DNA of 64,000 bases from Waddliaceae bacterium. GTDB taxonomy: Bacteria; Chlamydiota; Chlamydiia; Chlamydiales; GCA-2709385. This document shows positions 31,326 through 64,000 of this stretch, one piece after another; the first letter of the stretch is position 1; every line of letters begins with the position of its first letter. The DNA lies in assembly GCA_002709385.1 (NCBI GenBank), contig PAQS01000040.1, positions 155,066-219,065 on the forward strand, written 5' to 3'. The notes under the pieces are model-generated. The model was not told where the DNA came from, searched no databases, and saw only the letters and a program-made list of their open reading frames with translations. The position numbers and the translations under genes are program-made.

Positions 31326-31333
31326 GTGCTCCT

Positions 31334-49287: not shown

Positions 49288-50024
49288 CAGCAGTCTCCAC
49301 AAGATGTATCGATTAGAGGGGGATGATAGACTCCCATGGCAAAATGTTGGCAGACTTCTTCGGCTTTGAGACTTGTTAGTTCTTTTTGTACACAAAGAAT
49401 CTGATCAAACTCTTTGATGAGATGCCCTAAATCGTGTGTGATCATCACCATTGTCATTTTACCTTTCAACTTGCGAAAGAGTTGATATAGGTCTTGTGTG
49501 GTATCAGGGTCTAAACTAGCTGTAGGTTCGTCCATCAGTAAAAGCTTGGGTTTTGAAACTAGGGCACGAGCAATTAAAGCTCTTTGAAGTTGCCCTCCAG
49601 AGAGAGATCCTAAGCTATATTCACTAAGGTCAGCTAGTGCCACTTGCTCGAGAGCTTCCATGGCAGCATCTCGGTCTTCTTGACGGTAGCGACCAAATAA
49701 AGGCGCAGCATGAAGACGGCCTGTGAGAACTAATTCAATGACAGAAATAGGAAATTTGCGGTCCATAGGCAATTGCTGAGGAATGTAGGCAATTTCTTTT
49801 CTAGCTTGCTTCGGTGATTTTCCAAAGATTTCAATATTACCTGTACAAGGACGAAGAAAACCTAGTAACAGTTTCAGTAATGTTGTTTTTCCACCGCCAT
49901 TTGGACCAATGATACCGACAAATTCGCCTGCATTTACAGTAAAAGCGACATTCTTAAGTATAGATACAGCAGGGTGATACCAAAAGTGTAAGTTATGAAC
50001 ATTTAAGACAGCTGCTGTTTCCAT
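49287..50024 (-). CDS. metal ABC transporter ATP-binding protein
   Basis: Walker A is GPNGGGKTT, the signature is LSGGQLQRALIAR, and Walker B is LLLMDEPTASLD. Confidence 0.9.
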   Translation of the reverse strand: METAAVLNVHNLHFWYHPAVSILKNVAFTVNAGEFVGIIGPNGGGKTTLLKLLLGFLRPCTGNIEIFGKSPKQARKEIAYIPQQLPMDRKFPISVIELVLTGRLHAAPLFGRYRQEDRDAAMEALEQVALADLSEYSLGSLSGGQLQRALIARALVSKPKLLLMDEPTASLDPDTTQDLYQLFRKLKGKMTMVMITHDLGHLIKEFDQILCVQKELTSLKAEEVCQHFAMGVYHPPLIDTSCGDC

Positions 50025-50031
50025 AAAATAC

Positions 50032-51075: not shown

Positions 51076-51163
51076 GGAGGAGTGTCCGAGCGGCCGAAGG
51101 AGCACGCTTGGAAAGCGTGTGTACGTTAATCGCGTACCGCGGGTTCGAATCCCGCCTCCTCCA
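51076..51163 (+). tRNA. tRNA-Ser (anticodon GGA)
   Basis: Hand-folded. The acceptor stem is ggaggag/ctcctcc. The anticodon stem is cacgc/gcgtg with loop ttGGAaa. It has a long variable arm and a T-arm cgcgggttcgaatcccgc. The discriminator-position base is A (51163). Confidence 0.85.
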
Positions 51164-51168
51164 GTATT

Positions 51169-52290
51169 GTGAATGGTGAAGCGCTGGCATTGCCGTTGTG
51201 GCTGGAAAACAGGGGCGCAAAATTCGCAACAACCATTCAGTTGGTGGAAGCGGATCGCTTGTGTAACCCAAACGGCAAGCAGGATAGTAAATATCTTCGC
51301 GCTGGGATTGAGATTGATGCGTATGGCGCACCGCGCGCCTATCATATCCGCAAAAGCCATCCCGGTGATGCCTATTTGGGATTTGGCGTTGATATCAGCG
51401 ATTGGGAGCGTATTCCGTTTGCGACCAGTTTCGGTCGTCGCCGTGTTCTACATATTCATGATAAAGAGCGCACAGGTCAGCATCGAGGGAAGCCGCTTCT
51501 GACCTCCATCATGCCGATGTTTAAAATGCTGGATCATTACGAACGTTCAGAGCTTCAAGCGGCGGTGGTGAATGCCATGATTGCGGCCTTTATTGAAACC
51601 CCGCTGGACGGGGAAAGCATTGGCGAGATGTTTGGCGGATCGGTGGATGATTATCTTGCCGCACGCAATGAATGGGATATTCGCTTGCAGGGTGGATCAA
51701 TCATTCCGATCTTCCCTGGCGATAAGGTTGCGCCCTTTACGCCAAGCCGTCCGAACAGCGGATACGGCCAGTTTGTAGAAAATGTCCTGCGTCATATTGG
51801 TGCGGGTCTCAATATCCCGTTTGAATTGTTGATGAAGGATTTTTCCAAAACCAATTATTCAAGCGCCCGTGCAGCACTTTTGGAAGCGTGGCGCTATTTC
51901 TCGGCGCAACGCCAGTGGCTTGCCACCTATTGGGCAAGACCTGTTTATGAATTGTGGCTCGAAGAAGCGATTAACAAGGGGCTGATTGAAGCCCCTGATT
52001 TTTATGAGAACAAAGCTGCATGGACACGGTGCAAATGGATCGGCCCTGGTCGTGGCTGGGTTGATCCCGTCAAGGAAGCCAAAGCCGCCCATCTTCGGAT
52101 GCAGATTGGTCTTTCCACGCTGGAAGATGAATGTGCATCACAAGGTTTGGATTGGGAAGAAGTCTTGGAACAGCTTGCGCGTGAAAAAGCCAAGATCACT
52201 GAGCTTGGCCTCGCGATCAATGATGTGAACAGCATCTTAAACACCAACACAGAAGATAAACCTCTTGATAATACCGTACATAAACCGTAA
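51169..52290 (+). pseudogene. phage portal protein, lambda (gpB) family, 5'-truncated
   Basis: The 373-aa ORF opens with a GTG 5 nt after the tRNA. Segments VEADRLCNP, NYSSARAALLEAWRYF and GPGRGWVDPVKEAKA match my memory of PF05136/TIGR01539. That family runs to ~500+ aa, so the N-terminal part appears to be missing. Confidence 0.8.
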
Positions 52291-52293
52291 GAT
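52265..52293 (+). promoter_or_regulatory. sigma70-like promoter candidate TTGATA-N17-TAAGAT with ACCGTA repeats
   Basis: Read directly from the sequence. ACCGTA occurs at 52273, 52284 and 52304, a spacing of 11 and 20 bp. The site overlaps the portal stop and lies upstream of the RHH-YfbU gene. Confidence 0.35.
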
Positions 52294-52326
52294 ACGACAT
52301 ATAACCGTATTTAAGAGGAGTGTATT

Positions 52327-53016
52327 ATGGTAGAAAAGACAGAGCGTTTTGAAATGAGATTGTCACAGGAAGTATTTGATCAAGTTGATGAATGGCGAAA
52401 AGATCAAGATGATAATCCTTCACGCGCAGAAGCAGTTAGAAGGCTTATTGAGAATTCGCTTTCTAAATCTCCGTCAATAGCTGGCGGGGAAAAACTTATT
52501 TTGATAATGCTTTGTGATTTATTTAAGAAGCTAAAGATTGATAGTGATATTGAGCCTGATTTCATAGTAGATGTTATCTACGGTGGGCATTATTGGGCAC
52601 TAAAGTGGAAGTATCAGGGATTGTTTCATGGGTATGCCGATACAAACAAAGATGTCACTGAAGTTTGTGACATCCTAGATATGTGGGCTTTTATTGAAAG
52701 AGGATACAATAAACTCAGTAAAAAAGATCAGGATTTTCTGGAGAAAGAACTTTCGCCATTTGGAAAAAACATTCAATTCCCTGGGTTTGACGGCAATAAT
52801 GAAGCTGAACACTTAGGCATTGCACGCTTTTTAATTGAGAAGATGGATAGGTTTGGACACTTCAAAAATCGGGCACATGATTTGAATTCTCATTCACCTT
52901 CACTAGACGGATACAAAAAAATGTTAAATATATTCTTGCCGATGCGTTCTAACTTAATCGGGATTGAGCTTGATGCAAAACAGCTCGTTCAAATAATGAA
53001 TGCAAAATACAAATAA
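52327..53016 (+). CDS. ribbon-helix-helix (CopG/Arc-like) :: YfbU-domain fusion protein (moron)
   Basis: The N-terminus, ERFEMRLSQEVFDQVDEWRK..SRAEAVRRLIENSL, has an RHH pattern. The C-terminal ~165 aa are colinear with E. coli YfbU as I recall it: KLILIMLCDLF with RLILSNQYKMM, FPGFDGNNEAEHLGIARFLI with [20 protein letters not shown], and YKKMLNIF..LDAKQLVQIMNA with YQRMLNVW..LSANEINQIINA. The gene is AT-rich compared with its flanks. Confidence 0.75.
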   Translation: MVEKTERFEMRLSQEVFDQVDEWRKDQDDNPSRAEAVRRLIENSLSKSPSIAGGEKLILIMLCDLFKKLKIDSDIEPDFIVDVIYGGHYWALKWKYQGLFHGYADTNKDVTEVCDILDMWAFIERGYNKLSKKDQDFLEKELSPFGKNIQFPGFDGNNEAEHLGIARFLIEKMDRFGHFKNRAHDLNSHSPSLDGYKKMLNIFLPMRSNLIGIELDAKQLVQIMNAKYK

Positions 53017-53033
53017 AAAACTAAACCACCACC

Positions 53034-53059
53034 AAAAGCCGCCTTCGGGCGGCTTTTTT
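53034..53059 (+). terminator. strong rho-independent terminator inside the head-gene block
   Basis: The hairpin is aaaagccgcc-ttcg-ggcggctttt, followed by tt. Confidence 0.85.
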
Positions 53060-53081
53060 ATTGCAGAATCTAGGAGGAACG

Positions 53082-54290
53082 ATGAGAATCTGGAACCGCA
53101 TAACCGGTGATCCGTGGGCGATCACTGAAACCGCCTTGCACACGATTTTGGAAGTGGCCGCGCGTGAAAATGAAGCGCCAGAGGCGGTTGCTGCAAAACT
53201 TGGTCGTCAATTGCAAAACAGTTATAACGCCACCGAGCGCGATGGTGTAGCGATTATCCCTGTGACAGGGCCGCTCTTTCGGTACGCCAACATCTTCACG
53301 GCGATCAGCGGTGCATCCAGCTATGAATTGATTGCGCGTGATTTTATGAGCGCCCTTGAAAATCCGCAAATAAGTTCGATTATTTTGGATATTGATTCAC
53401 CCGGCGGTGAGGTTAACGGCGTGTCGGAGCTGGCCAGCATGATCTTTGAAGCACGCGGCACAAAACCGATCATTGCTTATGCGTCTGGTGATGCGGCATC
53501 GGGTGCATATTGGATTGCCTCTGCTGCCGATAAAATTGTGGTATCGGAAACATCGGCGCTGGGATCAATTGGCGTGGTTGGTATTTACCGTGGAAAATCA
53601 GCCAAAGAATCCACTGAGACGGTGGAGATTGTGTCCTCACAAAGCCCCTACAAACGCCTTGATCCAATGAGTGATGATGGTCGCGCCAAATTACAAACGC
53701 GTATTGACTCCATGGCCGATGTGTTTGTGTCGACCATTGCCCGCAATCGATCCGTCACGCCTGATCATGTGTTGGAGCATTATGGCGGTGGTGATGTCAT
53801 GATTGGTGCAAATGCCGTCAATGCCGGTTTGGCAGATCGCATCGGATCATTAGAGCGCCTGATTACAGAACTTTCATCCCCGAAAACCCAAAGCCCTCCG
53901 CCAGAGGGCTTTTTTAGTTCAACCCAACCGAAAAAGGAGAAAAAGCCCATGAACCTTGAACAACTGAAAACCGATCATCCCGATCTGGTTGCCTCACTGC
54001 ATGCAGAAGGATCAGCCAAAGAAAAGCAGAGATTGAAGGATATTTTAAGCTGTGAAGCTGCCGAAGGTCGCCAAAAGCTGGCGCAGGAAATTGCACTCCA
54101 TACTGAGATCAATGCTATGGATGCCCAGCATTTGATGAAGAGCGCGCCGAAAGATGAGCCAGAAAAACCGCAATCATCTTCGTTTGATCGCGTGATGTCA
54201 TCCATCCCCAATCCTGAAATCGCCCCTGATGGGGATGATCATATCGCCACTGCCGATACGGTTGCCGACCGCATCGCCTCAACCCGCTAA
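53082..54290 (+). CDS. S49-family prohead protease / minor capsid protein C-like, with C-terminal scaffold region
   Basis: Motifs are ILDIDSPGGEVNG and AYASGDAASGAYWIASAADKIV (SppA/ClpP-like). The ATG at 53082 follows an aggagg RBS; the track ORF starts at a TTG at 53061. Confidence 0.85.
   Translation: MRIWNRITGDPWAITETALHTILEVAARENEAPEAVAAKLGRQLQNSYNATERDGVAIIPVTGPLFRYANIFTAISGASSYELIARDFMSALENPQISSIILDIDSPGGEVNGVSELASMIFEARGTKPIIAYASGDAASGAYWIASAADKIVVSETSALGSIGVVGIYRGKSAKESTETVEIVSSQSPYKRLDPMSDDGRAKLQTRIDSMADVFVSTIARNRSVTPDHVLEHYGGGDVMIGANAVNAGLADRIGSLERLITELSSPKTQSPPPEGFFSSTQPKKEKKPMNLEQLKTDHPDLVASLHAEGSAKEKQRLKDILSCEAAEGRQKLAQEIALHTEINAMDAQHLMKSAPKDEPEKPQSSSFDRVMSSIPNPEIAPDGDDHIATADTVADRIASTR
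53949..54290 (+). CDS. candidate nested in-frame scaffold protein (lambda Nu3-like arrangement)
   Basis: An internal ATG lies in frame with the protease gene and is preceded by AAGGAG at 53934-53939. The product, MNLEQLKTDHPDLVASLHAEG..., is helical and charged. Confidence 0.4.
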   Translation: MNLEQLKTDHPDLVASLHAEGSAKEKQRLKDILSCEAAEGRQKLAQEIALHTEINAMDAQHLMKSAPKDEPEKPQSSSFDRVMSSIPNPEIAPDGDDHIATADTVADRIASTR

Positions 54291-54317
54291 CCCCAACAAT
54301 AAAGGAGACCCAAAACC

Positions 54318-54692
54318 ATGACTCATGCTTCAGGTTTTACCAATCAGGGTGAGTATAAACCCTGTAATTTACTGGCGGGAGAATACCCCCGCATTGAACG
54401 CATCATCACCATTGCTTCTGGCAGTAACCTTACCAAAGGCGCAGTGCTGGGACGCATTACCGCTTCGGGCAAGTTTGTCTTAAGTGCATCTGGCGCAAGC
54501 GATGGCTCAGAAACACCCGATGCCATTTTGGCCGAAAATATCGATGCAAGCGCCGAGGATAAACAAGCCGTTGTGTATTTCAGCGGTGAGTTTAACGAAA
54601 ACGCACTCACGCTTGGCACTGGCCACACGGTGGAAAGTATCCGCGCTGGTTTACGTTCCAAAAGCATCTTCCTTCGCTCAAATCAATCATAA
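54318..54692 (+). CDS. head decoration protein (lambda gpD-like)
   Basis: 124 aa. The sequence LLAGEYPRIERIITIASGSNLTKGAVLGRITASGKFVLS..DGSETPDAILAENIDAS..AVVYFSGEFN matches the gpD family pattern. It sits between the protease and capsid genes. Confidence 0.8.
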   Translation: MTHASGFTNQGEYKPCNLLAGEYPRIERIITIASGSNLTKGAVLGRITASGKFVLSASGASDGSETPDAILAENIDASAEDKQAVVYFSGEFNENALTLGTGHTVESIRAGLRSKSIFLRSNQS

Positions 54693-54712
54693 CCCATAAG
54701 GAGAACACTCAT

Positions 54713-55753
54713 ATGTCTGTAGATATTTTTAGCACCCATGTTCTGACCAAGGTGGTCGAACGGCTGGATCGTCCAAGCTCGTTTTTGCTGGATGTATTTT
54801 TCGGCCAGGAACAAACCGAAGATAGCGAAGAAATCCACTTCGATATCGATAAATCCAAACCACGTTTAACACCTTTTGTGTCACCCTTGGTGGCGGGTAA
54901 AGTCGTGGATGATGAAGGCTATATCACCAAGAGCTTCAAACCGGCATACGCCAAAGACAAACGCCGATTTGATCCAAGCCGTCCGCTCAAGCGCTCCATT
55001 GGTGAAAAAATCGGTGGGACATTGTCTCCGCAACAACGCCTTGAAGCCAATCTCAACCGCACGCTCACCAAGCAGCTTGAAAACCTCACGCGCCGTGAGG
55101 AAGTGATGGCGGCAGAAGCCTTGCGAACAGGAAAAATTACTGTCGCCGGTGAAGATTACCCAACGGTGGTGGTTGATTTTCAGCGTGATCCTGAATTGAC
55201 TGTTGCGCTGGCTGGTTCGTCCCGCTGGGGTGAAACAGGCGTGAATGCGCTCAACAACCTTGAAGACTGGGTTGCCAAAGTGCAGGAGAAATCAGGCGCA
55301 GTTGCCCGCACAGTTGTCATGGACGCGCTGGCATGGCGCGTGTTTAAGGCCGATGCGTCTGTTGAAAAGCTCCTTGATATTCGCCGGTTGCGCGATAACG
55401 CCGGCATTAATCTGGGGCCGATTGCGTTTGGTCAGGGTAATGAGCTTGCCCGCTATGTTGGCTCAATCGGTGATCTGGATTTCTGGGTTTATAACGACCG
55501 TTATGTCGATGAAAGTGATCAGGTGCAAAAACTGCTTCCTGATTACACGGTTTTAATCGGCAGTACGTCGCAGCTTGAAGGCACGCGCTGTTACGGCGTC
55601 ATCCAAGATGAAAAAGCGGCGTATCGGGCGCAGCGTTTCTTCTCCAAATCATGGTTAGAGGAAGACCCTGCTGTGCGCTGGTTGCTGTTGCAATCTGCAC
55701 CGCTCCTTGTGCCGTACCGTCCAAACGCATCATTTTGTGCAACCGTGCGCTAA
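54713..55753 (+). CDS. major capsid protein, lambda gpE family
   Basis: 346 aa. The N-terminus MSVDIFSTHVLTKVVERLDRPSSFLLDVFF and the length are typical of PF03864. Confidence 0.85.
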   Translation: MSVDIFSTHVLTKVVERLDRPSSFLLDVFFGQEQTEDSEEIHFDIDKSKPRLTPFVSPLVAGKVVDDEGYITKSFKPAYAKDKRRFDPSRPLKRSIGEKIGGTLSPQQRLEANLNRTLTKQLENLTRREEVMAAEALRTGKITVAGEDYPTVVVDFQRDPELTVALAGSSRWGETGVNALNNLEDWVAKVQEKSGAVARTVVMDALAWRVFKADASVEKLLDIRRLRDNAGINLGPIAFGQGNELARYVGSIGDLDFWVYNDRYVDESDQVQKLLPDYTVLIGSTSQLEGTRCYGVIQDEKAAYRAQRFFSKSWLEEDPAVRWLLLQSAPLLVPYRPNASFCATVR

Positions 55754-55767
55754 GGGAGGGTTGAATT

Positions 55768-56142
55768 ATGAAGATAACAGCAATCATTACCCTGCATGTT
55801 GACGGCAAAGCTATTCTGCCTGGCAAATCGGTTGATATTTCTGATGAGGAGGCAAAGTCACTGATTGAGCGTGGCTTTGCTAAGTCGGCGGATGTATCAT
55901 CCGTGGCAGAACAAAAGCCTGCTCAGACCCAGCACCCCGAACCCGCCATTGATGATGTGATTGAAGCCATTGAAATCCTCAATCCTGAAACCGACTTTGC
56001 CAAAAACGGCAAGCCAAAGGTGGAAGCGATAGAGGCTGTTCTTGGTCAAAACATCTCTGCCGAAACACGCGATAAGGCGTGGGAGCTTTATCAAAAAGAG
56101 CTGGAGGCTGATGAGGCATCGGGCGATGACGTTCAGGAATAG
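55768..56142 (+). CDS. hypothetical acidic phage protein (FI position)
   Basis: 124 aa. The N-terminus MKITAIITLHVDGKAILPGKSVDISDEEAKSLIERGFA resembles small Mu-like prophage N-terminal domains. Its role is unknown. Confidence 0.5.
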   Translation: MKITAIITLHVDGKAILPGKSVDISDEEAKSLIERGFAKSADVSSVAEQKPAQTQHPEPAIDDVIEAIEILNPETDFAKNGKPKVEAIEAVLGQNISAETRDKAWELYQKELEADEASGDDVQE

Positions 56143-56440
56143 TGCCATAAAATCGGTGGACGTGCTGTTTCATCGTTTTGGAAAAACGGCACGTCTAATC
56201 TTTGCGGATGAAACGGAAATTGAGGCGCTGGTGATCCATCGCCTGCCAGACAAAATCACAGATGTGTTTGATGCGCGGGTGCATTCGGAAACCGATATGT
56301 TTGAAGTGCGCCTGAGTGATATTCCTTCTGGCAACACGCTAGGGTCTATTGTTGTGGATGACAAGCGTTACACCATGCAGGGCGAACCCATCAAAGATCA
56401 GCATAATCTTATTTTAAAGGTAGATGCTTATGCGGTTTAA
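56126..56440 (+). CDS. head-tail joining protein (FII/gp6-like position)
   Basis: I prefer the ATG at 56126 (MTFRNSAIKSVDVLFHRFGKTARLIF...), which overlaps the upstream stop. The size and pattern are typical of head-tail joining proteins. Confidence 0.55.
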   Translation: MTFRNSAIKSVDVLFHRFGKTARLIFADETEIEALVIHRLPDKITDVFDARVHSETDMFEVRLSDIPSGNTLGSIVVDDKRYTMQGEPIKDQHNLILKVDAYAV

Positions 56441-57086
56441 AGCAGCTCTTGAGGGCGATCTTAAAAAACACATGAAGGAAGAGTATCACACGGCAGAGCG
56501 CGCCGTTACGCTCGGTATTCGTGAAGCCACAAATGGTTTAAAAATGTCCATGCGTCGCCAGGTACATTCGTCAGGTTTGGGACAACGTATGGCAAACACA
56601 TGGCGCGGTGACATTTACCCGCGTGGACAGAACTCTATTCGGGCGGCGGGGATGGTTTACAGCAAAGCCAGCAAAATCATGGCAGGCTTTGATGAAGGCA
56701 CGGTCATTAAATCAAAAGATGGTTGGTGGTTGGCTGTTCCAACGCCAAATGCGCCAAAGCGCGGTATGGGTGGTAAGCGGATTAATCCCTCCAACTTCCC
56801 TGAACATCGCTATGGCAAACTCCGCTTTGTGTATCGACGCAACGGGCCGTCATTATTAGTGGTCGAAAATGTTCAGGCGTCTTACAGCCGTAAAACAGGT
56901 GATATGCGGGGTTTTCGTAAAGCCAGCCAGAGAAACCTGAAAACAGGCCGTAATCTCTCAACCGCTGTGATGTTCTGGCTTGTGCCTCAAGTAAAGCTAC
57001 CAAAGCTGATCCGTTTCGATGAAGAAGCCAAGCGCTGGTATGACAAACTACCACGGCTGATTTTGAAGAACTGGCCGGATAGTTAA
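56424..57086 (+). CDS. phage neck / head-completion protein (DUF6441-like, uncertain)
   Basis: 220 aa. It overlaps the upstream stop. The family is assigned from memory only. Confidence 0.45.
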   Translation: MLMRFKAALEGDLKKHMKEEYHTAERAVTLGIREATNGLKMSMRRQVHSSGLGQRMANTWRGDIYPRGQNSIRAAGMVYSKASKIMAGFDEGTVIKSKDGWWLAVPTPNAPKRGMGGKRINPSNFPEHRYGKLRFVYRRNGPSLLVVENVQASYSRKTGDMRGFRKASQRNLKTGRNLSTAVMFWLVPQVKLPKLIRFDEEAKRWYDKLPRLILKNWPDS

Positions 57087-57161
57087 CAGTAAATAAATGA
57101 CAAAAAGCAAACTGAAAGTTTGTTTATTGCACTATTTTTAATGATTTATTGAGTCTTTGAG

Positions 57162-57190
57162 TTGACTATCATTAAAAAAATGACTATAAA
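57162..57190 (+). promoter_or_regulatory. near-consensus promoter TTGACT-N17-TATAAA for the AbiE pair
   Basis: Counted directly from the sequence. The -10 element ends 6 nt before the ATG at 57197 and no SD is visible, so the transcript may be leaderless. The direct repeat TGACTAT occurs at 57163 and 57181. Confidence 0.45.
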
Positions 57191-57196
57191 CATACT

Positions 57197-57967
57197 ATGA
57201 GTGTGTCAAATGATAAAAAATTAAAGAATCTTTTGGAGCAGTGGCCTGCAGGGTTTGCTGCCACTTTTCAATGGATGCAAACTTTAGGCATAACCACTCA
57301 ATTAACTCAGAGATATCTCAAGAGTGGTTGGATAGAGTCGATAGGGCGTGGAGCCTATAAAAAAACTAAAGATAAGGTGGAGTGGTATGGTGCATTAGCC
57401 AGCATTCAGCAGCAATTATTCACGCCTGTGCATTTAGGCGGACCAACAGCACTAGCAGTACAAGGGTCTTCTCATTATGTGCGAGTTGGAAAGGAAAGAA
57501 TATTTGTGTTCTCAGTGCCACAGCAAAGATTGCCCAGCTGGTTTTTGAAGCACGATTGGGGGCAACCTATAGAATGTATAAAAACGTCATTTTTATCTCA
57601 AGACCTTGGAATAAAAGAAGATGACTGCAATGGCTTCCCTGTACGAATGTCGTCACGGGAACGCGCTATATTAGAAAGCCTCTATTTAAGTCCGCAGCAT
57701 TTTGATTTGTTGGAATGTTACCAAATGATGGAAGGAATGAATGATATACGACCTAATCTGGTTCAGGAATTATTGGTTCAATGCAAATCTATCCGTGTGA
57801 AACGATTATTCTTATACATGGCAAGTAAAGCCAAGTTACCAGTCTTGGAATATCTGGATTTAAATAAAGTAGACCTTGGAACTGGAGACCGTTCTATCGT
57901 TGAAAATGGTGTTTATGATCCTCAATATAAAATCAGCATACCGAAAGAATTAGCAAATTATGTTTGA
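57197..57967 (+). CDS. AbiEi-family (AbiEi_3-type) antitoxin / transcriptional regulator
   Basis: The sequence LLEQWPAGFAATFQWMQTLGITTQLTQRYLKSGWIESIGRGAYKK..VEWYGALASIQQQL..VHLGGPTALAVQG matches the AbiEi N-terminal wHTH pattern. Confidence 0.8.
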   Translation: MSVSNDKKLKNLLEQWPAGFAATFQWMQTLGITTQLTQRYLKSGWIESIGRGAYKKTKDKVEWYGALASIQQQLFTPVHLGGPTALAVQGSSHYVRVGKERIFVFSVPQQRLPSWFLKHDWGQPIECIKTSFLSQDLGIKEDDCNGFPVRMSSRERAILESLYLSPQHFDLLECYQMMEGMNDIRPNLVQELLVQCKSIRVKRLFLYMASKAKLPVLEYLDLNKVDLGTGDRSIVENGVYDPQYKISIPKELANYV

Positions 57968-58859
57968 AGCCTATAACGAAAAACTGAAACTTCTGATCAA
58001 GGTTTTGCCAATGGTTGCCGAGGAAAATTGTTTTGCTTTGCACGGCGGTACGGCTATCAACTTATTTGTACATGATCTTCCACGCCTTTCGGTAGATATC
58101 GATCTGACTTATCTTCCTATTGAAGATAGGCCTACAACATTAAAAGGAATTGGTGACGCTCTTTTAAGGATCAAGGAAAAGGTCGAGGCAAAGATACCGC
58201 ATTCTCGTGCTGTTCATAAAGATGATATTGGCAAACTTATTATTTCATTGCATCGCACGGAAATAAAGCTCGAGGTTAATCTTGTTGGTCGTGGCACTTT
58301 GTCAGACCCTGTCAGAATGCCTGTTTGCAAACAGGTTCAGGATATATACGGGTCGTTTATGGCTATGCCAATTGTGCCAATCGGCCAGCTTTATGGCGGT
58401 AAAATATGTGCGGCGCTGGATCGTCAGCATCCCAGAGATTTGTTTGATGTAAAACTCTTGATGGAAAATGAAGGTTTCTCGGATGATGTTCGCACGGGCT
58501 TTTTACTCTGCCTTCTATGCAGTGATCGCCCGATCAACGAAGTTCTTGTGCCGAATTTTCAAGATCAACGTCAAGCCATGGAAAGACAGTTTACAGGCAT
58601 GAGCGATGTCGAATTTACTTACGATGATTTTGAAACAACGCGTGAACAGCTTGTCGAGACCGTTAATAAAAGCCTCACAGCAAAAGATAAAGAATTTTTG
58701 CTGAGCGTAAAAAACTGTGAGCCGGATTGGAGCATTTATGATTTTGAACGTTTCCCTGCTGTGCAATGGAAACTGCAAAATTTACGCAAGTTAAAAGAAA
58801 GCAACCCTGATAAGCATAAGCAGCTTTATGAGGCTTTGAAGGAAAAGCTCGAAGGATAA
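57960..58859 (+). CDS. AbiEii/AbiGii-family nucleotidyltransferase toxin
   Basis: The NTase core is LHGGTAINLFVHDLPRLSVDIDLTY, with ..YGGKICAALDRQHPRDLFD downstream. The start overlaps the AbiEi stop by 8 nt. Confidence 0.85.
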   Translation: MFEAYNEKLKLLIKVLPMVAEENCFALHGGTAINLFVHDLPRLSVDIDLTYLPIEDRPTTLKGIGDALLRIKEKVEAKIPHSRAVHKDDIGKLIISLHRTEIKLEVNLVGRGTLSDPVRMPVCKQVQDIYGSFMAMPIVPIGQLYGGKICAALDRQHPRDLFDVKLLMENEGFSDDVRTGFLLCLLCSDRPINEVLVPNFQDQRQAMERQFTGMSDVEFTYDDFETTREQLVETVNKSLTAKDKEFLLSVKNCEPDWSIYDFERFPAVQWKLQNLRKLKESNPDKHKQLYEALKEKLEG

Positions 58860-58865
58860 ACAAAC

Positions 58866-59300
58866 ATGACATCAAAACGAGAACAGGCCTTAGCGGGCCT
58901 TTTTTTATGCCTGCAAAATGAGATGAGCGGTGTTGCGGTTTTGAGGAATGAGCCATTGCCCACCAAAATCTCTGCATCGGGATTATTGATTTTGCGTGAT
59001 GGCGATGCGGGAGAGCCTGAAATAACGCTCTCCCCGACCAGGTATCACTATGCCCATGTTGCAGAATTGGAGGTGCTGGTACAAAAACCAAAACCCGATG
59101 AGCGTGATGCTGCATTGGATGAATTGTTGGTAGCGCTGGGTAACACGCTCAGCGCTGATCGGGCGCTCTCAGGTGCGGTGGATTACATGTCCATCGGCTC
59201 ACCTGAATTTTTAACCGAAGCCGTGGAAGGTGCGCCCGCTATTAAGGCGGCAGTCGTGCCGATCACGCTCGAATACACAACCCTTAACCCACTTCAATAA
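58866..59300 (+). CDS. tail terminator / tail completion protein (gpU position)
   Basis: 144 aa, placed immediately upstream of the tube gene. The assignment rests on position and size. Confidence 0.45.
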   Translation: MTSKREQALAGLFLCLQNEMSGVAVLRNEPLPTKISASGLLILRDGDAGEPEITLSPTRYHYAHVAELEVLVQKPKPDERDAALDELLVALGNTLSADRALSGAVDYMSIGSPEFLTEAVEGAPAIKAAVVPITLEYTTLNPLQ

Positions 59301-59314
59301 AGGAGAAACATATA

Positions 59315-60256
59315 ATGTCACGCGCTTACGGGTGGAATGCCCGCATGTTACTTGGTTTTGAAACCACATATGGTACACCCCCGAATTCGGGGGCTTTTCA
59401 TGTCATCCCCTTTGTGTCGTCTGATTTGGACTCGGCACAAGGGTTGATTGAATCCAATGTTCTGGGGCTAGGTCGTGATCCGACTGCGCCGTTTCAGGAT
59501 GTGATCAATGTGGACGGTGATATTGTTGTGCCGGTTGATCTTCGCAATATCGGTCTATGGCTCAAAGCCATGTTTGGTGCGCCAACCACCACAGGTGATG
59601 ATCCTTATACCCACGAGTTTAAATCAGGTGCAATCACACTGCCCAGTATTGCAGTGGAAGTTGGTTTACCTGAAATCCCTGACTTCCCTCTATTCACAGG
59701 CGTGCGTGCCAACAGCATCGCCTTTAATTTTGCCCGATCTGGTGAGGCACAAATCACCGTTGGCTTGATTGGTCAGGGCGAAACAGCGCAAACGGTCACG
59801 TGTGATGCCAATCCGAGCCAAGCCGATTACACACGGTTTTCGCAATTCCAAGGTTCGGTCAAACAAGGCGGTCAGGCGCTGGGGAATGTAACCTCAGCGG
59901 CGCTCACATATAGCAACAATCTGGAGCGTATCGAAACTATCCGTGATGACGGCAAGATCGACGGCGTAGACCCCGGCGTTGCGTCTTTAAGCGGGAATAT
60001 CACCGTGCGTTATGCCGATACCACATTGATGGATGCGGCGCGTGCCGGCATACCGATTGATCTGGAATTATCCTATATCATCGATGCCAATCGCCAGCTG
60101 GTCATTGAATGCCACGAGGTTTATTTGCCGAAGCCGAAACGATCCATTTCAGGGCCGAATGGCATTGAAGCGTCTTACGACTATCAAGGCGCAAAAGATG
60201 CTGTGCTGGGCAACATGGTTACAATCACTCTTATCAACGATGTGGAGACTTATTAA
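59315..60256 (+). CDS. major tail tube protein (gpV position)
   Basis: 313 aa with beta-rich sequence. It sits between the terminator-like and chaperone genes. Confidence 0.6.
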
Positions 60257-60786
60257 TGTTAAAACTCAATATTCAAACAGAAGCTTATTGGCTTGAACTT
60301 GGTCTGGGCGTGAAGGTAAAAGTGCGCCCATGCACTAGCCCGATTTTTTATGCCGCGCGGGCTTTCATGAACAAACGCCTGACGGAGTTAGGCGCAGAAT
60401 ACCGCAAGCGAAAAGAGATCGGCGCATCGGTGGATGATTTACCTGATGTCGAAAATCCTGAAATTCGTGAGGCACTGGCCGAGGAATATCTGGCACGGGG
60501 ACTAGCCCGCTCAGCCATTATTGATTGGGACGGTATTTTGGAATCGACCGGTGATGATAAAGCGCCTGTCACTCCTGAAAAGATTGATGAGCTGATGACA
60601 GGGTTTTGGTCAATCGCTGCCAGTTTCTCTGAGCAATACACAGGCGTGCGGGAGCTGATCGAAGCTGAAAAAAAAGACTTGAGCGCCGCGCCGAATGGCA
60701 CTTCGGAGACGGCGCAGGATATTGCGGGAACTGCCCCGAAACGTGTGCGGAATGCCCGTTCGAAAAAAACAGCCCGCAAAGCCTAG
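60256..60786 (+). CDS. tail assembly chaperone (gpG-like)
   Basis: 176 aa and acidic. It has a TAATG overlap with the tube gene and lies directly upstream of the tape measure gene. Confidence 0.6.
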
Positions 60787-60965
60787 AGGGTTTTCAAGCA
60801 TGGGATATTGCCGTTCGCATATCCCCACAAATCAGAAACAGCTTTCCTTTATCCGAAGCCTTAAGTCTGGCATCCGCGCTGGGCTATGACATGGCGGTGA
60901 TGGGAGAGCTGTTGCCTGCATTATCAACCGGTATCACCAAAGCCTTAATGGCTCATAAGGAATAA
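60256..60965 (+). CDS. candidate -1 frameshift fusion chaperone (gpGT-like)
   Basis: The -1 frame is open from 60669 to the TAA at 60963-60965, 10 nt before the tape measure ATG. A-runs lie at 60668-60675 and 60763-69 in the overlap (see finding). Confidence 0.45.
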
Positions 60966-60975
60966 TTAAACCGCC

Positions 60976-63900
60976 ATGCGTTCACAAAAAAACATGTCAA
61001 TCCGCCTTGCCGTGGTGGACGGGAAAAAGGTTGAGGATACCTTTTCTCGTATCGGGCGTACGGGTGAACAGGCTTTTGAGCGTATTGAGCGTTCGACTAA
61101 GCCCGCCAGTGTGGGCTTAAAGGCCGTTGATACCACAGCCCGTGCCTTGAATAATGTGTTTCGTCAAGCGGCAGGACTTGTGGCGGCTTATGCTGGGATT
61201 TCCGGCATTATTTCTTCTGTGCGCTCCGTCAATGAAACCGGTATGGCGTTTCAGGGCTTAGGAACGGCGCTGGAAACCATTACAGGCTCAAGCGCCGGTG
61301 CGCGTGAGGAAATGAAATTCCTCGAAGAACAAGCCGAGCGATTGGGCTTAAATCTCTTGGAAACAGCGCAATCTTATATGCAGATTGCTGCTGCCGCCAA
61401 AGGGACGGAACTTGCGGGCGATGGCACACGCCAGATCTTCACCGCCATTGCCGAAGCCTCCACTGTGCTTCAGCTTTCTGTTGATCAAACCAATGGTGCG
61501 CTCCGTGCCATCGGGCAAATCATGTCCAAGGGTAAGGTTCAGGCTGAAGAATTGCGCGGGCAATTGGGTGAGCGGCTTTATGGTGCATTCCAGCTTGCCG
61601 CACGCGGTATGGGCATTACCACGGCAGAGCTTGATAAAATGCTGGAGCAAGGTCAGGTTATTGCCGAAGATTTCCTGCCAAAATTTGCTGCGGAAATTCG
61701 CAAAACATTCTCCGATGGTGTGCCTGCCGCATCCATGACGGCGCGCGCGGAAATGAACCGCTTTAATAATGCGATTTTAGAAATTGAACGCACCATCGCC
61801 GCATCCGGCTTTTTGGATGGTATGACCCAAGGTTACCGTACCCTGACTGCAACGCTCGAAGATCCTGCGGTAGTCGATGCCGCTCGAGAATTAGGGCAAA
61901 CACTCGGCTCTGCCATTGCAACAGCAGCGGAAGGCCTTTCTTTTCTGATAGAGAATGCCGATTTGGCTGTCACGGCACTTGGTGGACTGGTGATTGCCCG
62001 CACAGTTGCGGGTGCGGTAACTCTTTTGAATGCATCCATTGCAGGCAATGCAGGATTGATTGTTGGTCTCCAGATGGCAAACAGCATTTCGACCGCCTTT
62101 GCTATCCGTCTTGTGGCGGTGGAAGCGGCCACCAAACTGGCAACATTGGCGATGGTGGGATTCCGCTCTGCCTTAATGTTGGTGGGTGGCCCTGTGGGGC
62201 TGGCTGTTTTGGCAGGCATTGCCGTTTTGAAACTGGCATCCGGTCACGATGCTGCAGCAAAAGCCGCCCGTGATCATGCGGAAGAATTAAAGGAGATCAA
62301 GGAAGAACTTGGCAAAACCGCCGAGGCGGCATCGGACTTAAGTGAGGCATTAAGTGAAAGCGAGAGCGTTTACCGTTTTACCAAGCAACTGGAAACGGCA
62401 AAAGAAAATATCATCGATCTGCAAAAGGAATTAAAATTCGGTGGCATTGGCGGTTTTTGGGATCAATTCAGCCGTTTTGGAAAACCGCTTCAAAATGAAT
62501 TGTATCAAATTCGCCAAGCCTTCAATCAAGGCAAGCTATCAGCAACGGAATATTCGGAAGCGTTATTCAAACTGGCAACCAAATATCCTGATTTCGGGGA
62601 ACAAGCCGAAGAAGTGCAACAGCAGGTGTTTGCGTTACTCGCGGCAGAACGTGCCGCTAAAAAAGCTGCCGCCGCGCTGGATGAATTACGAAATCCAAAA
62701 ACCAAGATTGCTGCACCTGAAACGCCAACGTCATCAGCCCCTGCGGAAGTGATCCCTGATCTATCGGATGCCGATAAAAAACGCATCACAGATCGCATCA
62801 CGGAATTACATGCAGAAGAACAAGCGCTTCAACGCTTAAATGCTGCACGTAATCAGGGCGAAACGGCTGTGCGCCGTGCCATGATTGCCAATGAACAGGA
62901 TCAGGCTTTACGCCGATTGGGCTTGGATGTCACCGGCGCGCAAAGTGATGAGCAAAAAGCTTATGCCGATCAGGTCAAATCGCTGGTGGGTGATATTTAT
63001 CAATTGCAGGAAGCAGATAAAAACTACCAAGACACTGTCCGTGAAAATAATAAGTTAACGCAAGAACGTGAACGGTTGGTTGAAGATGTGCGCCAGAAAT
63101 ATGATGCGCTGGATACGTCTTTATCGGCGGCGATTAAACGCGCGGGCGAATGGCGCGGCGAAGCCTTAACAGGCCTTGATGCCACCAAGACAGGCTATGC
63201 CGATTTTGCTGCACAGGTTGATGCGGTTTATAACGATATGATCGCCAAAGCTCGTGATGAAGATCTGCAAAATTCCAAAAAATGGGAAGATGGTATCAAA
63301 CGCGGATTGCAAAGCGTTATTGATGAAGCCGACGATATGGCGAGCAAGGCTGAACGCGGTGTGACCTCCATGTTTAAAAGCATGGAAGATGTGCTGGTTA
63401 GTTTTGTCACGACGGGTAAGCTGGATTTTAAATCCATGGCGGATTCCATCATTGCCGATATGGTGCGGATGCAAATCCAATCCAGCATCACAAAACCATT
63501 GGCGGGTGCGCTCGGTGGTTTTCTGGGTGATATTGCAGGGTCAATCTTTGGTGCGCCTGCGGGCACTGGTACGGCCTCCACAGCCACGGCTCATACTGGC
63601 GGTGTGATTGGCAGCGACACTTTACGCATGCGTTCGGTCAGTCCTGCGGTGTTTGCAAATGCGCCTCGTTTTCACACTGGTGGTATCGTTGGCAATGAGG
63701 TGCCGATTATCGCCAAACAAGGTGAAGCTGTCTTTACTCCAGGTCAAATGAAACTGCTGGGCGGTGCGTTGCAATCCAAGCCAAATGTGAATGTGTCTGT
63801 CCGTGTTGAAAATAATGCCAGCAATGCTCAGGCCAGAGCCGATGTTAGTCGTGATAGCGCAGGCAACATGGACTTAAAAATCATCATCGAGGAAGTGGAA

Positions 63901-63996
63901 GGCAATCTATCGCGCAATATCGGACGCGGTGAAGGTTTAGCGCCGACGCTCGAGCGTCGTTATGGCCTCAATCCTGCGGCGGGGAGTTACAGGTAA
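60976..63996 (+). CDS. tail tape measure protein (lambda gpH-like)
   Basis: 1006 aa and long, helical, Ala/Glu/Leu-rich. It contains a hydrophobic GxxxG-rich segment and a C-terminal PRFHTGGIVG..PIIAKQGEAVFTPGQ motif. The next gene's ATG (63997) overlaps its stop. Confidence 0.85.
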   Translation: MRSQKNMSIRLAVVDGKKVEDTFSRIGRTGEQAFERIERSTKPASVGLKAVDTTARALNNVFRQAAGLVAAYAGISGIISSVRSVNETGMAFQGLGTALETITGSSAGAREEMKFLEEQAERLGLNLLETAQSYMQIAAAAKGTELAGDGTRQIFTAIAEASTVLQLSVDQTNGALRAIGQIMSKGKVQAEELRGQLGERLYGAFQLAARGMGITTAELDKMLEQGQVIAEDFLPKFAAEIRKTFSDGVPAASMTARAEMNRFNNAILEIERTIAASGFLDGMTQGYRTLTATLEDPAVVDAARELGQTLGSAIATAAEGLSFLIENADLAVTALGGLVIARTVAGAVTLLNASIAGNAGLIVGLQMANSISTAFAIRLVAVEAATKLATLAMVGFRSALMLVGGPVGLAVLAGIAVLKLASGHDAAAKAARDHAEELKEIKEELGKTAEAASDLSEALSESESVYRFTKQLETAKENIIDLQKELKFGGIGGFWDQFSRFGKPLQNELYQIRQAFNQGKLSATEYSEALFKLATKYPDFGEQAEEVQQQVFALLAAERAAKKAAAALDELRNPKTKIAAPETPTSSAPAEVIPDLSDADKKRITDRITELHAEEQALQRLNAARNQGETAVRRAMIANEQDQALRRLGLDVTGAQSDEQKAYADQVKSLVGDIYQLQEADKNYQDTVRENNKLTQERERLVEDVRQKYDALDTSLSAAIKRAGEWRGEALTGLDATKTGYADFAAQVDAVYNDMIAKARDEDLQNSKKWEDGIKRGLQSVIDEADDMASKAERGVTSMFKSMEDVLVSFVTTGKLDFKSMADSIIADMVRMQIQSSITKPLAGALGGFLGDIAGSIFGAPAGTGTASTATAHTGGVIGSDTLRMRSVSPAVFANAPRFHTGGIVGNEVPIIAKQGEAVFTPGQMKLLGGALQSKPNVNVSVRVENNASNAQARADVSRDSAGNMDLKIIIEEVEGNLSRNIGRGEGLAPTLERRYGLNPAAGSYR

Positions 63997-64000
63997 ATGA

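Follow-up and report, generated by a model that had tools for sequence, protein, structure and literature searches.

The window analysed here, 64,000 nucleotides of contig PAQS01000040.1 from a Waddliaceae bacterium, is made of two compositionally distinct parts that meet at the 3' end of a tRNA-Ser(GGA) gene (Table 1). The G+C content is 0.376 over positions 1-51075 and 0.481 over positions 51164-64000, with the step at 51164; two host-like dips in the right part fall at 52.3-53.0 kb (the YfbU ORF) and 57.0-58.9 kb (AbiEi/AbiEii). Chlamydial 4.2-kb chunks show a tetranucleotide correlation of 0.94-0.97 with the left half versus 0.36-0.46 with the right block. An earlier note on this DNA had claimed the higher G+C on the right and proposed the tetranucleotide comparison, and both measures mark the right block as foreign.

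The left 51 kb is chlamydial, as that note had held. It encodes two TLC/NTT transporters, TolB, DsbD, Sdh and an LRR protein, together with MnmG, DnaB and ZnuABC. MnmG is 100% identical to a protein of the NCBI "Waddliaceae bacterium" MAG, and its next named matches are Chlamydiota/Chlamydiales at 71-73%; outside that MAG, where it is MBB65511.1, the exact ZnuA protein occurs only on contigs derived from Tara data.

Table 1. Features at the junction and in the right block of the window
Feature	Coordinates	Strand	Basis or remark
znuB (ABC-3), znuC (ABC ATPase), znuA	48460..50904	-	Pfam; chlamydial flank
tRNA-Ser(GGA)	51076..51163	+	ARAGORN
Left joint	51159..51164	+	CTCCAG common to tRNA 3' end and native portal gene (aligned with L004)
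Portal, lambda family, 5'-truncated (373/511 aa)	51169..52290	+	Pfam PF05136
YfbU-domain cargo gene, low G+C	52327..53016	+	Pfam PF03887
S49 head-maturation protease/scaffold (lambda C/Nu3 type)	53061..54290	+	Pfam PF01343 and NfeD1b_N
Head decoration protein, gpD family	54318..54692	+	Pfam PF02924
Major capsid protein, gpE family	54713..55753	+	Pfam PF03864, E = 4.6e-72
Small head-tail joining candidate	55768..56142	+	Only PHROG families of unknown function
FII-like head-tail attachment protein	56126..56440	+	Pfam PF05354
DUF6441 protein, conserved phage gene between head and tail modules	56424..57086	+	Pfam PF20039, phrog_6367
AbiEi antitoxin (57197-57967) and AbiEii toxin (57960-58859)	57197..58859	+	PF17194, PF11459, PF08843
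Tail terminator	58866..59300	+	phrog_4204, E = 1.6e-30
Tail tube protein	59315..60256	+	Pfam PF18906, E = 1.1e-58
Tail assembly chaperone G	60256..60786	+	phrog_313; G/GT type
Chaperone -1 frame extension ORF	60695..60889	+	Slippery AAAAAAG at 60670, AAAAAAC at 60764
Tape measure protein, 1006 aa	60976..63996	+	Pfam TMP_3 and Tape_meas_lam_C

A lambda-type block cut within its portal gene

Gene calls with Pfam and PHROGs bear out the lambda-ordered series described earlier, from portal, S49 protease, gpD and gpE to terminator, tube, G/GT chaperone and tape measure, and the window indeed holds no integrase, terminase, repressor or lysis gene. The truncation of the portal, the adjoining tRNA-Ser(GGA) and the YfbU and AbiE toxin-antitoxin inserts had been overlooked. 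The portal directly adjoins the tRNA and is 5'-truncated, because only positions 113-354 of the 354 in the PF05136 profile are matched and ~136 N-terminal codons are missing; the NCBI record gives it no protein accession and passes from MBB65511 to MBB65512 across it. The small gene after the major capsid gene is conserved in position in all copies of the block, and the FII-like protein is called as 104-108 aa in related loci. The overlap and slippery motifs of the chaperone ORFs suggest a -1 frameshift of the G/GT type. The exact tape measure protein is encoded on 13 contigs and listed by NCBI as MBB65524.1; its stop codon lies 4 nt before the end of the window.

The block is best likened to the lambda morphogenesis region (B, C/Nu3, D, E, FII, U, V, G/GT, H), with which it shares gene order, Pfam families (Phage_portal_2, S49 protease, gpD, gpE, FII-like and the tape-measure C-terminal domain) and an overlapping chaperone ORF. 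Unlike lambda, it has a tube of the Phage_tube_2 family and extra DUF6441, YfbU and AbiE genes, and no lambda-type int, cI or replication module lies beside any copy seen. No nucleotide match was found among 50,697 deposited phage records.

Donor and extent of the segment

Three copies of the block (L004, L096 and L122) are complete, with a full 511-aa portal, gpW and terminase, and match window positions 51159-64000 at 99.99% nucleotide identity, with one mismatch in 12.8 kb. They are labelled '[Pseudomonadota bacterium]' by NCBI, and 'Micavibrio sp. TMED27' has identical counterparts of the proteins that flank them, on contigs of up to 2.05 Mb. This lambda-like head-tail-lysis element of marine 'Micavibrio sp.'/alphaproteobacterial MAGs (e.g. 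GCA_036128715.1 JAYYQB010000001.1, Micavibrio sp. TMED27) has the same gene order as the chlamydial copy, including the low-G+C YfbU and AbiEi/AbiEii cargo, which all three complete copies carry (YfbU in the same place), and further downstream both have matching tail-tip genes, lysozyme, IS3 and copper island. Missing from the chlamydial copy are the ParB-methylase, the terminase (small and large), gpW and ~136 codons at the start of the portal gene, and it is joined to the chlamydial tRNA instead. In its native hosts the element has GTA-like traits: it is under strong purifying selection, and no integrase or replication module was seen.

The search for the nearest taxa of the capsid, also proposed earlier, leads to the same group. 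An identical major capsid protein is present in 54 blocks of the assembly collection, and 'Micavibrio sp.' and alphaproteobacterial MAGs encode it at 99-100% identity; every relative at 86-100% belongs to a Micavibrio/alphaproteobacterial MAG, with none in Chlamydiae. These matches support Micavibrio-like marine alphaproteobacteria as the likely donor type.

The 12.8-kb block makes up the first third of an alphaproteobacterial segment of 38.35 kb. This runs from the phage late genes, cut mid-portal, through the tail and lysozyme genes into the donor IS3, a copper/metal-resistance island, a sigma-like gene, an HTH gene and a Fic gene, so that about 17.5 kb of donor DNA lies past the phage genes. 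In donor coordinates, its start lies 3.8 kb downstream of the gene for the small terminase and its end about 42 kb from that gene; synteny with the alphaproteobacterial MAG stops at L141:11763. The proteins from ZnuA (MBB65511) to a P-type ATPase (MBB65553) carry consecutive NCBI accessions on one 247,204-bp contig.

These data bear on the reading first favoured for the block, a native chlamydial tailed prophage or a domesticated GTA- or tailocin-like remnant. The block does adjoin a chlamydial tRNA, a classic prophage site, and every ORF in it is intact. However, a truncated portal without terminase makes packaging impossible, a single mismatch against the alphaproteobacterial copies leaves no time for domestication, the composition is foreign, the block runs on into donor chromosomal genes, and no chlamydial-labelled relative exists among 185,579 species-representative genomes. 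A native origin is thus very improbable. With its portal truncated and both terminase and regulatory genes absent, the block cannot make particles in the chlamydia and is passenger DNA.

Two joints at the att core of a WO-like prophage

Beyond the window, where the earlier note had advised looking, come the tail and lysozyme genes and the rest of the segment, then a second phage with a serine recombinase, its attR and a return to DNA of chlamydial composition. This prophage, of about 44 kb, resembles Wolbachia phage WO. Its genes include those for a large serine recombinase, a LexA-type repressor, Sak4 and a primase-helicase, for the small and the large terminase, portal and capsid, and for a PAAR-bearing baseplate, a sheath, a tube, a tape measure protein, gpD and a GH108 lysin. 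The tube shares 96% identity with a '[Waddliaceae bacterium]' protein and 67-79% with the tubes of Wolbachia phage WO, and the best phage-database matches of the sheath are those of Wolbachia phage WO (68-69.5%). The prophage normally integrates at tRNA-Ser genes, and relatives adjoin the 3' ends of tRNA-Ser(GGA) and tRNA-Ser(GCT) in L154 and L153.

The 38.35-kb segment sits at the attL crossover, between the tRNA-Ser(GGA) 3' end and the terminus of the WO-like prophage. With a stroke marking the break, attP reads CTAACCTCC/GCCAGTTTTT, attR CTAACCTCC/GTTTTTTCTC, the left joint CTCCTCC/AGTATTG and the right joint GATACACC/GCCAGTTTTT. The partners share 6 bp at the left joint and 2 bp at the right, and CC stands at the break in all four recombining sites, which places the probable left-joint crossover at 51161-51162. 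The tRNA discriminator base (51163) is now A, whereas the native base after CC is G, as attR shows. The ancestral canonical attL, with the prophage directly after the tRNA, was not found on the contigs. Lying 44 kb away, attR adjoins a flank whose G+C is 0.383 and whose tetranucleotide usage correlates at 0.951 with that of the chlamydial half, against 0.73-0.81 for alphaproteobacterial and phage control DNA; it is composition and att-site logic, not marker genes, that mark the DNA beyond attR as chlamydial again.

Could the contig be chimeric, the result of mis-joining a chlamydial contig to the chromosome of an alphaproteobacterium that is abundant in the same samples? Alphaproteobacterial genomes common in marine metagenomes match the right block at 99.99% identity, and single-sample assemblies break within the phage genes, where ~90%-identical variants co-occur, their tips drifting into variant phage sequences. 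None of the contigs examined runs the whole way from the tRNA through the 38-kb segment and the prophage into the chlamydial flank. A secondary assembly with Minimus2 (overlap of 100 bp, identity of at least 95%; PMC5769542) is the most likely source of the window, so the check on contigs themselves joined to chlamydial DNA covers the block outside its interior of roughly 54.4-58.9 kb. The joint evidence and all chlamydial-side contigs are Tara Oceans data with zero SNPs among the chlamydial sides, which means that one strain was sampled; independence of the joint-carrying contigs therefore refers to separate runs and assemblers, not separate populations. However, the left joint is crossed by seven contigs (L088-L094) from different runs and assemblers and the right by six (L141/L178, L144, L179-L182) plus the NCBI contig, and the shared 6 bp and 2 bp are far below any assembler k-mer. 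The tRNA is absent from every alphaproteobacterial locus compared, and no contig continues differently after it. Both joints, moreover, lie exactly on the att crossover dinucleotide, matching an attR 44 kb away, a geometry that an artefact would have no reason to respect. Together, these observations make a chimera unlikely.

Origin of the insertion

The most probable reading, which we hold with reasonable but incomplete confidence, is that positions 51164-64000 are the opening 12.8 kb of an alphaproteobacterial chromosome fragment of 38.35 kb that now resides in a marine chlamydial chromosome at a prophage attL. The single mismatch in 12.8 kb indicates a very recent inter-phylum transfer and not the first chlamydial lambda-like prophage. 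Among the interpretations offered earlier, recent proteobacterial transfer is the one that stands, with 99.99% identical Micavibrio-like copies, a 38.35-kb extent and both joints defined; the prophage, GTA or tailocin remnant is not supported for this block, and the chimera is unlikely.

The CC at the break in all four sites points to serine-recombinase recombination at pseudo-sites. The recombinase would have recombined att sequences with two alphaproteobacterial pseudo-sites, the first inside the portal gene and the second 141 bp beyond Fic. In Route A, a circularised alphaproteobacterial segment would have inserted into the attL of a chlamydial lysogen. In Route B, the WO-like phage would first have entered an alphaproteobacterial chromosome at the post-Fic pseudo-site; an aberrant excision would then have carried along 38 kb of the flanking DNA, and integration at the chlamydial tRNA would have followed. 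Either route could produce the observed structure. Serine integrases act on pseudo-sites only rarely.

Known parallels are the aberrant excision that underlies specialised transduction (lambda gal/bio) and the pseudo-att recombination of large serine integrases (phiC31, Bxb1). Here too, chromosomal DNA of foreign origin meets a temperate phage genome exactly at the att crossover, the central dinucleotide being all that the partner sites have in common. Unlike in these parallels, donor and recipient belong to different phyla, and 38 kb of cargo plus a 44-kb phage is more than such a capsid should hold.

A real insertion need not have involved a recombinase: a linear alphaproteobacterial fragment, which could have come from in situ headful packaging from pac/cos (lateral-transduction or GTA-like) or from transformation, may have been captured at an attL break by microhomology-mediated end joining. 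The segment runs in the packaging direction through the phage into the host flank, its span, from 3.8 to about 42 kb when measured from the small-terminase gene, would suit headful packaging into a capsid of lambda size, the element is GTA-like in its native hosts, and microhomologies of 2-6 bp are compatible. Yet both ends fall on the same CC of the att core instead of arbitrary nearby positions, no cos/pac site lies at the left end, and the DNA would have to pass from a phage particle of an alphaproteobacterium into a chlamydia that lives inside cells. We regard end joining as conceivable but doubtful.

A candidate chlamydial tailed prophage

In the literature consulted, tailed-phage gene sets have been reported in Chlamydiae only on a few plasmids (Köstlbacher et al. 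2021, PMC7846284). Like the window block, these sets place tailed-phage structural genes (terminase, tail tip protein L) in the phylum and were interpreted as acquired; unlike it, they are old, diverged and plasmid-borne, whereas the block is chromosomal, beside a tRNA and nearly identical to its donor.

The WO-like prophage has closer company in Symbioviridae, whose proposed genus Undavirus comprises aquatic WO-like prophages (Bordenstein & Bordenstein 2022, PMC9203015). It shares with Undavirus the large serine recombinase, baseplate PAAR, all core modules, GH108 lysin and LexA-type repressor, has Wolbachia phage WO as nearest named relatives, and carries no ankyrin/EAM genes in the stretch read. 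It differs in its copper-resistance cargo, its integration at tRNA-Ser and its host, labelled Chlamydiota, a group never mentioned in the main text of PMC9203015; YqaJ is unconfirmed by Pfam, the only match being a PHROG Cas4-domain exonuclease. The prophage may or may not be the 'Tara Oceans Prophage SP13' of that study. The genuine candidate for a chlamydial tailed prophage is this WO-like neighbour beyond the window, a more notable object than the lambda-type block.

A truncated lambda-type element
The lambda-order gene set proposed in the earlier note, and the compositional step that accompanies it, are both borne out by Pfam and PHROGs profiles and base counts. The S49 protease, gpD and gpE genes lie in lambda order (53061-55753), the tail terminator, tube, G/GT chaperone and tape measure genes form a set of lambda type, and G+C changes sharply at about 51.1 kb, from 0.376 (1-51075) to 0.481 (51164-64000). 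Two dips to 0.36-0.40 interrupt the lambda-type block, at 52.3-53.0 kb and 57.0-58.9 kb; the YfbU and AbiEi/AbiEii genes found there have a host-like G+C of 0.36-0.41. Neither the G+C of the block (0.481 vs 0.376) nor a tetranucleotide correlation of 0.36-0.46 is that of a native chlamydial element.

Genes of the block (window coordinates), of the source-MAG contig (three-digit numbers in NCBI accession order, MBB65 series) and of the adjoining WO-like prophage (gene order)
Feature	Position or order	Strand	Basis or remark
Lambda-family portal (PF05136)	51169-52290	+	Pfam
YfbU-domain cargo gene	52327-53016	+	low-G+C dip
S49 protease/scaffold (PF01343)	53061-54290	+	Pfam
gpD decoration protein (PF02924)	54318-54692	+	Pfam
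gpE capsid, 346 aa (PF03864)	54713-55753	+	Pfam
FII-like attachment protein	56126-56440	+	Pfam
DUF6441	56424-57086	+	Pfam/PHROGs
AbiEi/AbiEii toxin-antitoxin pair, cargo	57197-58859	+	low-G+C dip
Tail terminator (phrog_4204)	58866-59300	+	PHROGs
Tube (PF18906)	59315-60256	+	Pfam
G/GT tail chaperone (phrog_313)	60256-60786	+	overlapping -1 ORF, slippery heptamers; frameshift predicted
Tape measure protein, 1006 aa, lambda C-terminal domain (PF20155, PF09718)	60976-63996	+	Pfam
ZnuA	MBB65511		accession order
YfbU	512		accession order
Capsid	515		accession order
Tape measure protein	524		accession order
Cu-ATPase	540		accession order
TPR protein	541		accession order
Multicopper oxidase	545		accession order
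CDF transporter	548		accession order
Sigma-like protein	549		accession order
DUF2231	552		accession order
P-type ATPase, partial	553		accession order
Copper cargo: DUF2231, P-type ATPase, multicopper oxidase	first past Fic
Large serine recombinase, 433 aa (Resolvase, Recombinase, Zn_ribbon_recom domains), and DUF2924 protein	after copper cargo
LexA/S24-type repressor (LexA_DNA_bind, S24)	after recombinase/DUF2924
Primase-helicase, Cas4-domain exonuclease, Sak4	after repressor		replication/recombination
Sigma factor, RuvC-type resolvase, ParB-methylase	after Sak4
Small and large terminase			phrog_15, E = 1e-272
Head: portal, protease, decoration protein, major head protein	after terminase
Neck, baseplate V/PAAR/W/J/I, tail fibres	after head genes
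Sheath, tube, tape measure protein, gpU, gpX, gpD	after tail fibres
GH108 lysin (PF05838, PG_binding_3)	last listed

A full-length gpB-family portal is absent: profile positions 113-354 of 354 are matched, and the protein has 373 aa against 511 aa in the donor-type copies described below. Because the match is partial and the ORF begins 5 nt past the tRNA-Ser(GGA) gene (51076-51163), the block is read as 5'-truncated inside the portal gene, and the absence of terminase, whose genes lie upstream of the break, does not reflect where the window happens to stop. Accordingly, small and large terminase subunits were found in neither the window nor the chlamydial contigs, only in alphaproteobacterial copies. 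The 38-kb foreign segment of which the block is part holds no integrase, repressor or replication genes of its own, and apart from an IS3 transposase and the serine recombinase encoded by a neighbouring WO-like prophage there is no recombinase near the block. Lacking terminase, an intact portal and regulators, the lambda-type block cannot form particles in the chlamydia. With packaging genes missing, it is not a complete, host-maintained head-tail-packaging set of the kind expected of a gene transfer agent (GTA), and a single mismatch to the donor in 12.8 kb leaves neither time for domestication nor a history of maintenance as a chlamydial GTA.

Alphaproteobacterial origin of the block
An identical 346-aa capsid occurs in 54 blocks of the assembly collection, with the arrangement complete every time: ParB-methylase, small and large terminase, gpW, then a portal of 511-514 aa. 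The nearest taxa of the capsid were sought in GTDB, with one genome per species. Relatives at 86-100% identity belong to MAGs that bear the title Micavibrio sp. or Alphaproteobacteria bacterium, except for one MAG each under Rickettsiales, Bdellovibrionales, Pseudobdellovibrionaceae, Pseudomonadota and Amylibacter; gammaproteobacteria, Rickettsiales and Bartonella hold those farther off. Of the 79 capsid-related loci in these species-representative genomes, none carries a chlamydial label. Window 51159-64000 recurs at 99.98-99.99% identity in four donor-type copies (L004, L096, L122 from NCBI GCA_036128715.1, and L123); each differs by one or two mismatches, shares the YfbU and AbiE inserts, and has a full portal and terminase. 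Their proteins are labelled "[Pseudomonadota bacterium]" at NCBI, and the genes beside them have identical counterparts in "Micavibrio sp. TMED27" and lie on contigs of up to 2.05 Mb. The block is alphaproteobacterial, not chlamydial. A first lambda-type prophage of a chlamydia, one reading of the earlier note, is not supported, given the truncated portal, the missing terminase, the foreign composition and these near-identical copies; its alternative of a recent proteobacterial transfer is supported, and is here resolved to the base pair.

The YfbU and AbiEi/AbiEii inserts, already in the donor copies, are not chlamydial insertions; other variants of the element have HipA/HTH or nothing in these slots. 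Some MAGs hold 2-4 copies of the lambda-like element, and its lysozyme has counterparts at 85-94% identity in records from Bartonella, Thiodiazotropha, Kentrum and Rickettsiales. Among 50,697 deposited phage genomes, megablast detected nothing that matches the block. Among ~90%-identical variants (the window copy, L001, L002, L005 and L009), the capsid gene differs at 69-93 nt but at 0-1 aa, which points to an element under strong selection in alphaproteobacterial hosts. No integrase, lysogeny or replication module stands beside the ~15 copies whose flanks were read. In its native hosts, the lambda-like element may be GTA-like, or else a phage of very wide spread.

The chlamydial half
The left half encodes two TLC/NTT transporters, TolB, DsbD, Sdh, an LRR protein, MnmG, DnaB and ZnuABC. 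Its MnmG has a 100% match at NCBI with the label "MAG … [Waddliaceae bacterium]", and the next named matches, at 71-73%, are labelled Chlamydiota or Chlamydiales. A non-chlamydial left half, suspected once identical capsids had appeared in 'Micavibrio' MAGs, is ruled out by this identity and these labels, and the chlamydial assignment made from hallmark genes stands.

A four-gene cluster at 28248-34545 (DUF1302, DUF1329, BNR/YCF48-like, MMPL/RND) is of a kind better known from Pseudomonadota and could be an older acquisition. The succinate dehydrogenase (19391-23232) has a long membrane subunit of 374 aa with a weak Sdh_cyt match; the best solved-structure match of its flavoprotein is 9lay, with E. 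coli fumarate reductase behind. It is a non-mitochondrial type of complex II.

Extent of the foreign segment
Source-MAG accessions (locus tags CMO81_) follow one another from ZnuA to the partial P-type ATPase on a single contig of 247,204 bp. Tail-tip genes and a lysozyme gene follow 3' of the tape measure gene, and then come an IS3 element and a copper/metal-resistance island of G+C 0.50-0.60. On scaffold_148, the TARA_SAMEA2622804 contig that carries the right joint, synteny with the alphaproteobacterial MAG ends 141 bp past a Fic gene, which places the segment from window 51163 to about 89,509 (extended window coordinates), 38.35 kb in all, with the block in the window as its first third. 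Any selective value of the segment more likely lies in its copper/metal genes than in the block.

Both joints fall on a phage attachment site
Relatives of the WO-like prophage abut the 3' ends of tRNA-Ser(GGA) (L154) and tRNA-Ser(GCT) (L153). In another relative, L169, the prophage ends are joined as attP, …CTAACCTCC/GCCAGTTTTTA… (the slash marks the break). This joined-ends form, circular or tandem, lies at 15,900-16,400 (ENA ERZ17157134 ICM0303MP0878_1262380; …CTAACCTCC/GCCAGTTTTTATTTCTCG…) and suggests, at the level of sequence, that the phage family still excises. The attR at the far prophage end in scaffold_148 reads …CTAACCTCC/GTTTTTTCTC…, so that the bacterial site would have been tRNA…CTCCTCC/G-TTTTTTCTC, consistent with the tRNA-Ser(GGA) of the window. 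The expected attL, tRNA…CTCCTCC/GCCAGTTTTT, is split by the 38.35-kb segment into a left joint, tRNA…CTCCTCC/AGTATTGTG… (portal), and a right joint, …GATACACC/GCCAGTTTTTAG… (prophage). The native alphaproteobacterial sites are GCTCC/AGTATTG in the portal gene and ACACC/TCAAAATT past Fic. Serine recombinases need matching central dinucleotides; CC stands at the break in all four partners, the signature expected of such an enzyme. The discriminator base of the tRNA (51163) is A, and no CCA is encoded; attR implies a native G, so that recombination would have changed the tRNA 3' end. A canonical attL, with the tRNA joined directly to the prophage, was sought as the ancestral state and found in none of 8 contigs, and an exact-match scan of JGI metagenomes with a tRNA 45-mer returned no match.

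Past attR lie genes for a TetR regulator, an HlyD-like protein, an ABC transporter and an outer-membrane factor, at G+C 0.383. High G+C was dropped as a donor signature: the donor's own chromosome is at ~0.42, and G+C alone cannot separate alphaproteobacterial from chlamydial flanks, so tetranucleotide composition with controls was used over the 4.3 kb past attR. This flank correlates at 0.951 with the chlamydial left half, within the 0.94-0.97 of chlamydial self-chunks, and at 0.74-0.81 with donor-native or WO-like phage DNA; donor-native and WO-like phage chunks correlate at 0.73-0.74 with the chlamydial half.

An assembly chimera, another reading in the earlier note, we consider improbable. 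Several runs and assemblers contributed the seven contigs across the left joint (L088-L094); the right joint is present on six contigs (L141/L178, L144, L179-L182) and also on the NCBI contig. All left-joint contigs derive from Tara Oceans data with an identical chlamydial side, and so represent one strain, and no single contig spans the whole 83-kb insertion; single-sample assemblies end within phage genes, where ~90%-identical variants co-occur and break them. Moreover, the source MAG appears, from its accession style and locus tags, to stem from a Minimus2 secondary assembly (PMC5769542). Against misjoining, the joints share just 6 bp and 2 bp, the tRNA is found in no alphaproteobacterial locus, and no contig offers an alternative continuation after it. 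Nor would an artefact be expected to place both breaks on an att crossover dinucleotide whose partner site is 44 kb off.

The coverage values given in contig names, at most suggestive, are 5-7 alike for the contigs with chlamydial, phage, copper-island and WO-like DNA within the same assemblies. A tRNA-mediated k-mer chimera, with an alphaproteobacterial tRNA-Ser beside a truncated portal, was rejected, the tRNA being absent from alphaproteobacterial loci and the shared stretch 6 bp. SNPs in the junction contigs were likewise discarded as population variation: they are confined to tips drifting into variant phage sequence, and the chlamydial side has none in most contigs, so independence of populations is not claimed.

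A WO-like prophage beyond the segment
The resident prophage, a temperate myophage of ~44 kb that lies outside the window, occupies scaffold_148 from ~34,843 to ~79,278 (L151, L168, L178). The DNA past Fic has a G+C of 0.38-0.42, and replication, head, baseplate, fibre, tail and lysis modules were all found; for the stretch from RuvC to baseplate, including the head module, a 94%-identical IMG/VR contig served in place of scaffold_148. PAAR (PF05488) adjoins gpV and gpW. A YqaJ exonuclease gave no Pfam match, and PHROGs assigns a Cas4-domain exonuclease (phrog_1990, E = 8.6e-71). The tube has a 96% match labelled "[Waddliaceae bacterium]", followed by Wolbachia phage WO tubes at 67-79% and then by Rickettsiaceae, Ca. 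Mesenet and Coxiellaceae; the top sheath matches among 50,697 phage records are also Wolbachia phage WO (68-69.5% aa identity).

Undavirus, a proposed genus of Symbioviridae, is defined by a serine recombinase, PAAR, GH108, LexA and the lack of ankyrin/EAM genes, with Chlamydiae not named as host (Bordenstein & Bordenstein 2022, PMC9203015). The WO-like prophage shares the large serine recombinase, PAAR, GH108 lysin and LexA, and its called genes include no ankyrin or EAM gene and gave no Ank match. A further copy at a tRNA-Ser(GGA) (L154:11,923-14,825; ENA and NCBI ERZ25039505 contig_29650, 182 kb) adjoins ankyrin-repeat genes in DNA of very low G+C (0.27-0.31), probably that of a different intracellular bacterium. 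Tailed-phage genes in Chlamydiae have until now been noted only as old plasmid-borne sets (PMC7846284), and a literature search found no earlier report of a tailed prophage in Chlamydiota. The WO-like prophage may be the first assignable to this phylum.

Possible routes of capture
The att geometry is best read as pseudo-site recombination by a serine recombinase, which could have taken two routes. A circularised alphaproteobacterial segment may have inserted into the attL of a chlamydial lysogen. Alternatively, a WO-like phage would have integrated past Fic in the alphaproteobacterium, excised aberrantly with 38 kb of flanking DNA, much as in specialised transduction by lambda, and afterwards entered the chlamydial chromosome at the tRNA. 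A less probable alternative needs no recombinase: the lambda-like element would have packaged, in situ, a headful-sized fragment that was then captured. The distance of ~42 kb between the small-terminase gene and the end of the segment is compatible with a headful, but this accounts less well for the CC geometry.

On the recombinase reading, a marine chlamydia would be lysogenised at tRNA-Ser(GGA) by a tailed temperate phage of WO-like (Symbioviridae/Undavirus) type, complete and apparently active, its activity suggested by the joined-ends attP form in a relative. The serine integrase of this phage would have captured 38 kb from an alphaproteobacterial chromosome, with copper-resistance genes and a dead lambda-like prophage among the cargo. 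We hold the case for this whole account to be evenly balanced. If true, it would amount to a tailed prophage in Chlamydiota and an inter-phylum transfer via a phage integrase caught in the act.

Implications
Small ssDNA microviruses are known from Chlamydiae, a group considered fairly closed to foreign DNA, and gene transfer between bacteria that live in the same protist hosts is a familiar theme. What is unusual here is near-identity across phyla over 38 kb, insertion in a prophage att junction, and a WO-like prophage in a chlamydial MAG. The lambda-like block is passenger DNA: it should not be reported as a chlamydial phage, nor chlamydial phage biology inferred from it. Provided that the structure is real, 38 kb or more of an alphaproteobacterial chromosome entered an uncultured marine chlamydia recently enough for just one base in 12.8 kb to differ, with copper/metal resistance cargo that could be adaptive. 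Entry at the att junction of a WO-like prophage would implicate a phage serine integrase in capturing foreign DNA at pseudo-sites, and the Wolbachia phage WO family would extend to a second phylum of intracellular bacteria, which bears on gene exchange among such symbionts.
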